A stretch of DNA of 541 nt from a phage, in sequence record EF517047.1; one strand, given 5' to 3'. The notes under the pieces are model-generated. The model was not told where the DNA came from. It worked only from the letters and a program-made list of their open reading frames with translations, and did not search any database. Positions 2-541 of this stretch are shown in pieces; the first letter of the stretch is position 1, and every line of letters starts with the position of its first letter. Made by a program: the position numbers and the translations under genes.

Positions 2-292
2 ACTGTGGAGGCAGGACGAGATGAGATGGCTGTAGGCTCTCACGCTAAGGGTTACAACCACAACTCTATCGGCGTCTGCCTTGTTGGTGGTATCAACGAT
101 AAAGGTAAGTTCGACGCTAACTTTACGCCAGCCCAAATGCAATCCCTTCGCTCACTGCTTGTCACACTGCTGGCTAAGTACGAAGGCGCTGTGCTTCGCG
201 CCCATCATGAGATAGCGCCGAAGGCTTGCCCTTCGTTCGACCTTAAGCGTTGGTGGGAGAAGAACGAACTGGTCACTTCTGATCGTGGATAA
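2..292 (+). CDS. 3.5: T7-type lysozyme / N-acetylmuramoyl-L-alanine amidase (gp3.5), 5'-partial; C-terminal ~96 codons plus TAA stop
   Basis: Frame beginning at position 2 translates as TVEAGRDEMAVGSHAKGYNHNSIGVCLVGGINDKGKFDANFTPAQMQSLRSLLVTLLAKYEGAVLRAHHEIAPKACPSFDLKRWWEKNELVTSDRG*, which I recognise as the C-terminus of T7 lysozyme. The ORF track's 5..292 ORF is the same frame; its GTG at 5-7 is an internal Val codon, not the true start, and the frame is open to the window edge. From memory of the T7 protein there are two conservative differences (GGIDDKG to GGINDKG, HEVAPK to HEIAPK). The AHHEIAPKAC segment contains the His and Cys residues I recall as zinc ligands and the Lys needed for amidase activity. 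Confidence 0.95.
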   Translation, partial: TVEAGRDEMAVGSHAKGYNHNSIGVCLVGGINDKGKFDANFTPAQMQSLRSLLVTLLAKYEGAVLRAHHEIAPKACPSFDLKRWWEKNELVTSDRG

Positions 293-355: not shown

Positions 356-541
356 ATGCGCAAGTCTTATAAACAATTCTATAAGGCTCCGAGAAGGCAT
401 ATCCAAGTGTGAAAGGCAGCCAATGGACCTATACCAAAAGGTTATTATATAGACCACATTGACGGCAATTCACTCAACGACGCCTTAGACAATCTCCATC
501 TGGCTCTCCCAAAAGAAAACTCATGGAACATGAAGACTCCA
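356..541 (+). pseudogene. 3.8: Gene 3.8 homologue (HNH endonuclease-like), 3'-partial, interrupted by an in-frame TGA at codon 19 (410-412); may be inactivated or depend on UGA readthrough
   Basis: ATG at 356 with SD, then MRKSYKQFYKAPRRHIQV, TGA at 410-412, then in the same frame with no further stop KAANGPIPKGYYIDHIDGNSLNDALDNLHLALPKENSWNMKTP to position 541. The downstream part carries the HNH-type motif (DHIDGN...N...NL...N). As I recall it, T7 gp3.8 reads HIQVWEAANGPIPKGYYIDHIDGNPLNDALDNLRLALPKENSWN, so TGA replaces a Trp codon (TGG) and the next codon is AAG where T7 has GAG. The ORF track lists nothing here because of the stop. Confidence 0.7.

Follow-up and report, generated by a model that had tools for sequence, protein, structure and literature searches.

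How is a catalytic motif to be understood when it lies intact and in frame behind a stop codon? The window, by which we mean the whole stretch of 541 phage nucleotides analysed here, raises this question near its 3' end, where a frame opening at 356 runs into a TGA at 410-412 and the HNH motif follows at 452-529. This arrangement had been described in an initial annotation made from the letters of the DNA, and it is borne out by our analysis. The reading that we favour, with a probability of roughly 0.82, is that the window carries a mutagen-induced knockout of the non-essential gene 3.8 in a derivative of phage T7 with a heavy load of G:C>A:T changes, that is, an ordinary loss-of-function allele and a feature of known kind rather than a new expression mechanism. 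We infer a laboratory mutagenesis origin for the window and, as a separate matter, the absence of a functional gene 3.8 product.

Identity and layout of the window

The window aligns without gaps to positions 10870-11410 of phage T7 (NC_001604), over 541 of 541 bases, at 98.0 % identity and with no indels. It is colinear with the T7 segment running from gene 3.5 through phi3.8 to gene 3.8, promoter and leader included. Gene 3.8 of T7 (NP_041974) is a free-standing gene resembling those of HNH homing endonucleases and is located between the lysozyme gene 3.5 and the primase/helicase gene 4. The window agrees with it in locus, promoter phi3.8, leader, start codon and frame, with 56 of the 62 codons unchanged and the same residue at 57 of the 61 sense codons; however, it differs in a weakened Shine-Dalgarno sequence, a stop at Trp19 and the substitutions E20K, P39S and R48H, and only an 18-residue peptide can be read from it. 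The features are as follows.

1-292, + strand: 3' two-thirds of gene 3.5 (lysozyme/amidase), codons 56-151 and TAA, from T7 identity and annotation
294-326, + strand: class II promoter phi3.8 with its transcription start at 311, same as T7 (T7 annotation at 11180)
295-343, + strand: R3.8 RNase III processing site within the leader, same as T7, positioned from the annotation of Yersinia phage Y
343-348, + strand: Shine-Dalgarno sequence of gene 3.8, changed from GGAGGT to GAAGGT by G345A, from predicted pairing with the 16S 3' end
356-412, + strand: translatable part of gene 3.8, 18 codons (MRKSYKQFYKAPRRHIQV) and TGA, with G394A silent (R13), from the frame and T7 comparison
410-412, + strand: premature stop, G412A, TGG (Trp19) to TGA, from T7 comparison
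413-541, + strand: remaining codons 20-62 of gene 3.8 in the window, predicted to be untranslated, with E20K, G427A (silent, G24), C470T (P39S) and G498A (R48H)
423-452, + strand: out-of-frame mini-ORF MDLYQKVII with its stop, judged incidental and present in wild-type T7 too
452-529, + strand: HNH core of the HNH_3 / I-HmuI type, with D33, H34, N46, L47, H48 (in place of R), N55 and N58

Read from 356, the frame gives MRKSYKQFYKAPRRHIQV, the stop and then KAANGPIPKGYYIDHIDGNSLNDALDNLHLALPKENSWNMKTP, and so covers the first 62 codons of gene 3.8; the stretch from D33 to N58 (DHIDGNSLNDALDNLHLALPKENSWN, 452-529) is in the same frame as the gene 3.8 start. Across 284-344 there are zero differences between T7 and the window. 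The equivalent of phi3.8 is annotated at 8882-8914 in Yersinia phage Y. An Rfam search of the window gave zero family matches.

Translation beyond the stop codon

After the stop, the sole in-frame ATG is at 530-532, behind the motif and without a Shine-Dalgarno sequence (duplex dG -0.9), as the initial annotation had it. On scanning for in-frame ATG, GTG and TTG between 413 and 529, none was found. Reinitiation was rejected on this ground, there being zero in-frame start codons between the stop and the motif. With no restart codon available, an HNH-containing product is possible solely through readthrough of the UGA, and the earlier proposal to this effect is supported. Initiation at the gene's own start is also affected, the predicted pairing of the Shine-Dalgarno sequence with the 16S 3' end falling from -10.0 to -3.5 kcal/mol with G345A. 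An uninterrupted frame leading from a usable start codon to the motif, as would be expected for a functional gene, is absent from the window.

The ATG at 423, which lies out of frame, does encode MDLYQKVII followed by a stop, as previously described, and we found no evidence that this mini-ORF is used. In wild-type T7, a strong Shine-Dalgarno-like GGAGG lies 6 nt upstream of this ATG, the version in the window being GAAAGG.

Could the UGA nevertheless be misread, most plausibly by tRNA-Trp, such that a low level of full-length functional gp3.8 is made? Among the stop codons of E. coli, UGA is the leakiest and can be read as Trp, and the frame downstream of it is open and retains its match to the HNH_3 family. 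There is also a non-catalytic role for gp3.8, since the preprint in which H34 is taken as its predicted catalytic His reports that the GAPS4 defence is blunted even by T7_3.8 H34A, which is catalytically dead (bioRxiv 10.1101/2025.09.07.674715). However, T7 and the natural relatives examined have TGG at this codon, and the TGA is therefore a new mutation rather than a conserved recoding site. In addition, the Shine-Dalgarno sequence is weakened simultaneously, the invariant R48 is replaced, and the pattern of changes in gene 3.8 fits neutrality. Of the two marks of programmed readthrough, the stop is not conserved, and neither an Rfam element nor another recoding signal that could act as the stimulatory signal was found in the window. 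On this evidence, we consider functional expression by readthrough very unlikely.

The eleven differences from T7

The origin of the stop had been overlooked in the initial annotation. It is a TGG>TGA substitution, and it is one of 11 differences from T7 among the 541 bases, every one of which is a G:C>A:T transition (9 G>A and 2 C>T on the + strand), a uniformity that had likewise gone unremarked.

95, G>A: lysozyme D87N
212 and 214, G>A and G>A: GTG to ATA, lysozyme V126I (two changes in one codon)
283, C>T: silent, lysozyme D149
345, G>A: Shine-Dalgarno sequence of gene 3.8, GGAGG to GAAGG
394, G>A: silent, gene 3.8 R13
412, G>A: TGG (Trp19) to TGA
413, G>A: E20K, forming with 412 a tandem GG>AA
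427, G>A: silent, gene 3.8 G24
470, C>T: P39S
498, G>A: R48H

Since the stop itself belongs to this set of transitions, a plain knockout is the simplest account of it, rather than readthrough expression. Seven of the changes fall in gene 3.8 when its ribosome-binding site is included. The base on the 5' side of the mutated G is G in 8 of the 11 cases, against 25 % expected (p=0.0012), and by trinucleotide class the window has four changes at GGA and two at GGT, along with a single tandem; the strand bias of G>A over C>T (9 vs 2) is marginal (p=0.04). A spectrum that is exclusively G:C>A:T and biased to GG would mark the window as mutagenised T7 over its full length, the lysozyme part as well. 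Six random G:C>A:T changes in this part of gene 3.8 would produce one or more nonsense codons about one time in three, as estimated from 6 stop-creating sites among 85, and the stop therefore requires no special explanation.

Two pairs of mutations are at most 2 nt apart (212-214 and 412-413), an outcome with a chance of about 0.05 if the changes were placed at random on G:C sites; these paired mutations may come from clustered damage.

Comparison with mutagenised T7 genomes

A protein-level search found the T7 records AY264775-AY264778 (isolates K, K115, P and P82), which we take to be the mutagenised, bottlenecked T7 of Bull et al. (2003, J Mol Evol 57:241). K (AY264775) and P (AY264777) were compared against the accompanying wild type AY264774, from which they differ by 417 (1.07 %) and 307 (0.78 %) substitutions respectively, 93 % of them G:C>A:T in both. 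In these two genomes, the 5' base of the mutated G is G in 41-43 % and A in 39-41 % of cases, the top trinucleotides are GGA and GGT, and 2-3 tandem GG>AA changes occur per genome. The same 541 bases hold 8 changes in K and 7 in P, all of them G:C>A:T. Missense changes in gene 3.8 comprise A11V, P25S, A43T and G89D in K, and G37D, P39S and D45N in P. In the records of this set, several non-essential genes are demoted to 'similar to gene X'.

The window therefore resembles K and P in its T7 backbone, the dominance of G:C>A:T, the 5'-G context, the GGA and GGT classes and the tandem GG>AA. It is, however, identical to none of the deposited mutagenised genomes, having C283T in common with K and C470T (P39S) in common with P. 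The frame of gene 3.8 is open in both K and P, whereas a nonsense codon interrupts it in the window. The density of changes is also higher in the window (2.0 %) than in K (1.07 %) or P (0.78 %), and at least 11 changes are reached in 6 % of K windows and in 0 P windows. A 5'-A context is seen in 0 of the 11 changes, although about 36 % would be expected under the context model from K and P (P ~0.006), and the mutagen or process behind the window may be different from that of K and P. As 25 mutated sites are common to K and P genome-wide, where chance would give about 7 (an estimate from 417 x 307 over ~19,300 G:C sites), recurrent hot spots are plausible, and the single changes that the window has in common with K and with P point to mutagen hot spots or parallel selection.

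Mutagenesis of T7 with nitrosoguanidine or hydroxylamine gives mainly GC>AT changes (PMC6042481), and the O6-methylguanine mechanism has been described (PMC5306230). The G:C>A:T load of the window, 11 changes in 541 bp or 2 %, a figure that describes these 541 bp and not the genome as a whole, would be of the kind made by guanine-alkylating or cytosine-modifying mutagens such as these two, together with population bottlenecks.

The changes might instead be other than real alleles, with cytosine deamination or other damage or error entering through a read or assembly of low coverage. C>T and G>A are exactly the changes that deamination produces, and the source is merely 541 bases long. However, the 5'-GG context and the GGA and GGT classes match those of mutagenised T7, unlike deamination that is free of context. 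Furthermore, the lysozyme changes are all conservative or silent, one of them being a natural variant, which suggests filtering by selection. An artefact of this sort is thus very doubtful.

Less probable again is biological hypermutation, in which T7 would have been edited by a host- or phage-encoded DNA cytosine deaminase or defence system. In its favour, one could point to changes that are exclusively G:C>A:T and to their strand bias (nine G>A, two C>T). Known DNA cytosine deaminases, however, prefer TC or the 3' C of CC, whereas on the C strand it is the 5' C of CC that is changed here, and K and P, which are chemically mutagenised, show the identical preference for the 3' G of GG. It is exceedingly improbable that the load stems from DNA editing during T7 infection, for instance by a bacterial cytosine deaminase of anti-phage or interbacterial type that favours, unusually, the 5' C of CC; if it did, gene 3.8 would have been killed as a side effect of a defence that hypermutates phages, much as APOBEC edits retroviruses. 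An APOBEC3G-like signature was considered and rejected, the mutated base being the 3' G of GG and not the 5' G. A UV signature, as might be read into the tandem GG>AA and dipyrimidines, was set aside as uninformative, as chance alone puts about 75 % of C sites in a dipyrimidine and the same tandem GG>AA occurs in K and P; UV-treated T7 is reported to give mainly GC>TA (PMC6042481).

Three k-mers bearing the mutations were also searched for as exact matches: one is absent from IMG/VR, metagenome contigs and GTDB genomes, and the other two are absent from IMG/VR, the wild-type control k-mer being recovered in the scan. The exact protein of the lysozyme fragment gave no match. A search of plasmids and E. 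coli genomes returned only clones of the pLysY type, which end at window position 429 and lack the window's mutations.

Constraint on gene 3.8 and on lysozyme

The two conservative changes that had been counted in the 96 lysozyme codons were recovered as D87N and V126I, along with one synonymous change. At the position of lysozyme D87, N is found naturally in Yersinia fPS phages. The further suggestion that substitutions are concentrated in gene 3.8 stands as a trend and not as a significant excess (6/186 nt vs 4/292 nt, Fisher p=0.20). Counted by mutable site in the window, the excess of gene 3.8 over gene 3.5 gives p=0.10 per G:C site and p=0.11 per GG site. The changes within gene 3.8 comprise 3 missense, 2 synonymous and 1 stop, where random G:C>A:T changes would be expected in the proportions 0.60:0.33:0.07. 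These types equal the random expectation and are therefore compatible with no selection on the window's branch.

On taking K, P and the window together, the ratio of nonsynonymous to synonymous changes is 11:4 in gene 3.8 and 5:6 in gene 3.5, which is suggestive, albeit not significant; these counts were made by hand with a record discrepancy at 11062-11063 left out, the uncorrected ratios being 11:4 vs 7:8 (p=0.26). At these two positions (window 192-193), the 'wild-type' record AY264774 has GT, whereas V01146/NC_001604, K, P and the window have TG. The GT is probably a record error or a private variant, and it adds two to the apparent lysozyme differences.

Relaxed constraint on gene 3.8, as proposed in the initial annotation, is consistent with the window's own branch, where the types of change fit an absence of selection, but it does not extend to the T7 lineage, in which natural dN/dS is low. 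Pairwise dN/dS was estimated by the Nei-Gojobori method for unsaturated pairs of natural T7-like phages. For gene 3.8, it lies between 0.02 and 0.10 in the six unsaturated pairs whose dS is 0.25 or more, and it reaches 0.39 in less diverged pairs, which have few substitutions; for lysozyme, it is 0.03-0.20 over unsaturated pairs. Individual values for gene 3.8 are listed below.

T7 and 04922B: 0.07
P509 and KP32i194: 0.03
P509 and IME205: 0.05
P509 and TH49: 0.02
KP32i194 and IME205: 0.07

Judged from these ratios, purifying selection on gene 3.8 in nature has about the same strength as on lysozyme. This argues for a useful function of the small HNH protein in natural T7-like phages.

The HNH motif and its family

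The segment after the stop matches the Pfam family HNH_3 (PF13392) by itself (E=4e-11), and the HNH motif can therefore be regarded as real and not as a chance open frame. The conceptual readthrough translation matches the same family with E=6.6e-14, and wild-type gp3.8 scores 56 bits against HNH_3. D33, H34, N46, N55 and N58, the residues expected of an HNH_3 / I-HmuI-type coding sequence, are all there, the exception being the conserved Arg of the N-L-R motif, which is H48 in the window.

No variation is seen at D33, H34, N46 or N58 among 27 homologues; position 19 is W in 25 of them, and position 39 is P in 20 and S in none. R48 is R in all 26 homologues having that position and is also R in I-HmuI. 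The substitutions P39S and R48H relative to T7, which the initial annotation had proposed, are both real; neither S39 nor H48, which would have been unremarkable if common in functional homologues, was seen in any of them. Given the invariance of R48 in the homologues and I-HmuI, R48H is very probably damaging.

The relationship with I-HmuI was recognised only when PDB was searched with a profile built from gp3.8 homologues; a search with the single gp3.8 sequence gave spurious matches alone (a designed Kelch repeat and Fabs). The family profile aligns with I-HmuI (PDB 1U3E) at E=7.6e-9, the pattern DH.DGN...NLR....N..N being shared. In contrast to I-HmuI and HNH_3 members, the motif of the window is predicted to be untranslated and the Arg of NLR is replaced by His.

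The full gp3.8 is 121 residues long and its C-terminal half is AP2-like. Beyond the window, the family profile matches AP2/ERF domains in PDB over residues ~62-121 (7wq5 with E=6e-4, and 7et4), and remoter homologues of gp3.8 carry the Pfam domain PF00847, from which an architecture of HNH followed by an AP2-like DNA-binding domain can be deduced.

A probable course of inactivation

In the mutagen-induced knockout that we favour, gene 3.8 would be silenced at three successive points. The weakened Shine-Dalgarno sequence would lead to poorer ribosome loading, as the predicted drop in pairing suggests; translation would then end after 18 residues; and no restart would take place ahead of the HNH motif. 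The motif downstream would be the recognisable remnant of a freshly inactivated gene, remaining in frame because no indel has occurred. As the lost codon was Trp, misreading of the UGA by tRNA-Trp would recreate the wild-type residue 19, although such misreading would be expected at no more than trace level, and its product would be scarce and would carry H48 where Arg is otherwise invariant. The puzzle of a motif after a stop codon can thus be mimicked by a gene that was inactivated only recently, and before recoding is proposed, differences from the nearest reference deserve to be checked for their type and context.

Natural relatives and dispensability of gene 3.8

Of the natural relatives in which the two genes occur together, Escherichia phage NC-A and Yersinia phage Y are the closest, with 18 and 23 differences from T7 in this stretch respectively. 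These differences are of mixed types, with 33-39 % G:C>A:T, and 13 and 18 of them are synonymous. They lie mostly in lysozyme, with one each in gene 3.8, and none of the 11 changes of the window is shared with either phage. At the natural proportion, the probability that 11 of 11 changes would be G:C>A:T is ~1.6e-5.

In both NC-A and Y, gene 3.8 is nearer to T7 (dS 0.03-0.07) than is the adjacent lysozyme gene (dS 0.31-0.60). Recent spread of the HNH gene, whether through homing or through recombination, would be expected to leave such a mosaic pattern.

As for other T7-like phages that might lack gene 3.8, a check proposed in the initial annotation, the gene is indeed missing from T3 and Escherichia phage C5, where the phi3.8 promoter region is followed directly by gene 4. 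Its absence there is in line with a different view of the window, namely that it comes from a natural relative of T7 whose gene 3.8 has lost its homing function and is in decay. Free-standing homing-endonuclease genes do decay, and a natural premature stop is known at codon 104 of the homologue in Klebsiella phage IME205. Natural divergence, however, is mixed, mostly synonymous and found in lysozyme, with gene 3.8 nearly unchanged in NC-A and Y, whereas the changes of the window are solely G:C>A:T, lysozyme and leader included, and match no natural variant of these two phages. Natural decay is accordingly rated as improbable.

In the laboratory, T7 can do without the gene. Gene 3.8 is non-essential, and no effect was detected in T7 in which it was largely replaced by a T3 gene (PMC6042481); viable T7 lacking genes 2.8, 7.7 and 3.8 has been built (preprint, bioRxiv 10.1101/2025.09.07.674715). 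That heavily mutagenised T7 stays viable with non-essential genes such as gene 3.8 knocked out is already documented.

In IME205 (KU183006, 901-1266), the stop falls between EVVS and IYR, at a position that is Trp in its relatives, and the homologue is annotated as a shortened 'homing endonuclease'. A laboratory deletion of gene 3.8 after codon 10 is seen in the T7 clone T7_50L (MZ375241, 1156-1240, of which the part equal to the window is 356-384), with an in-frame join (MRKSYKQFYKELGGNC) to sequence lying immediately before the start of gene 4A. In many laboratory T7 clones of the series MZ3752xx, gene 3.8 is likewise deleted after codon 10, and their match ends at the same base as in T7_50L.
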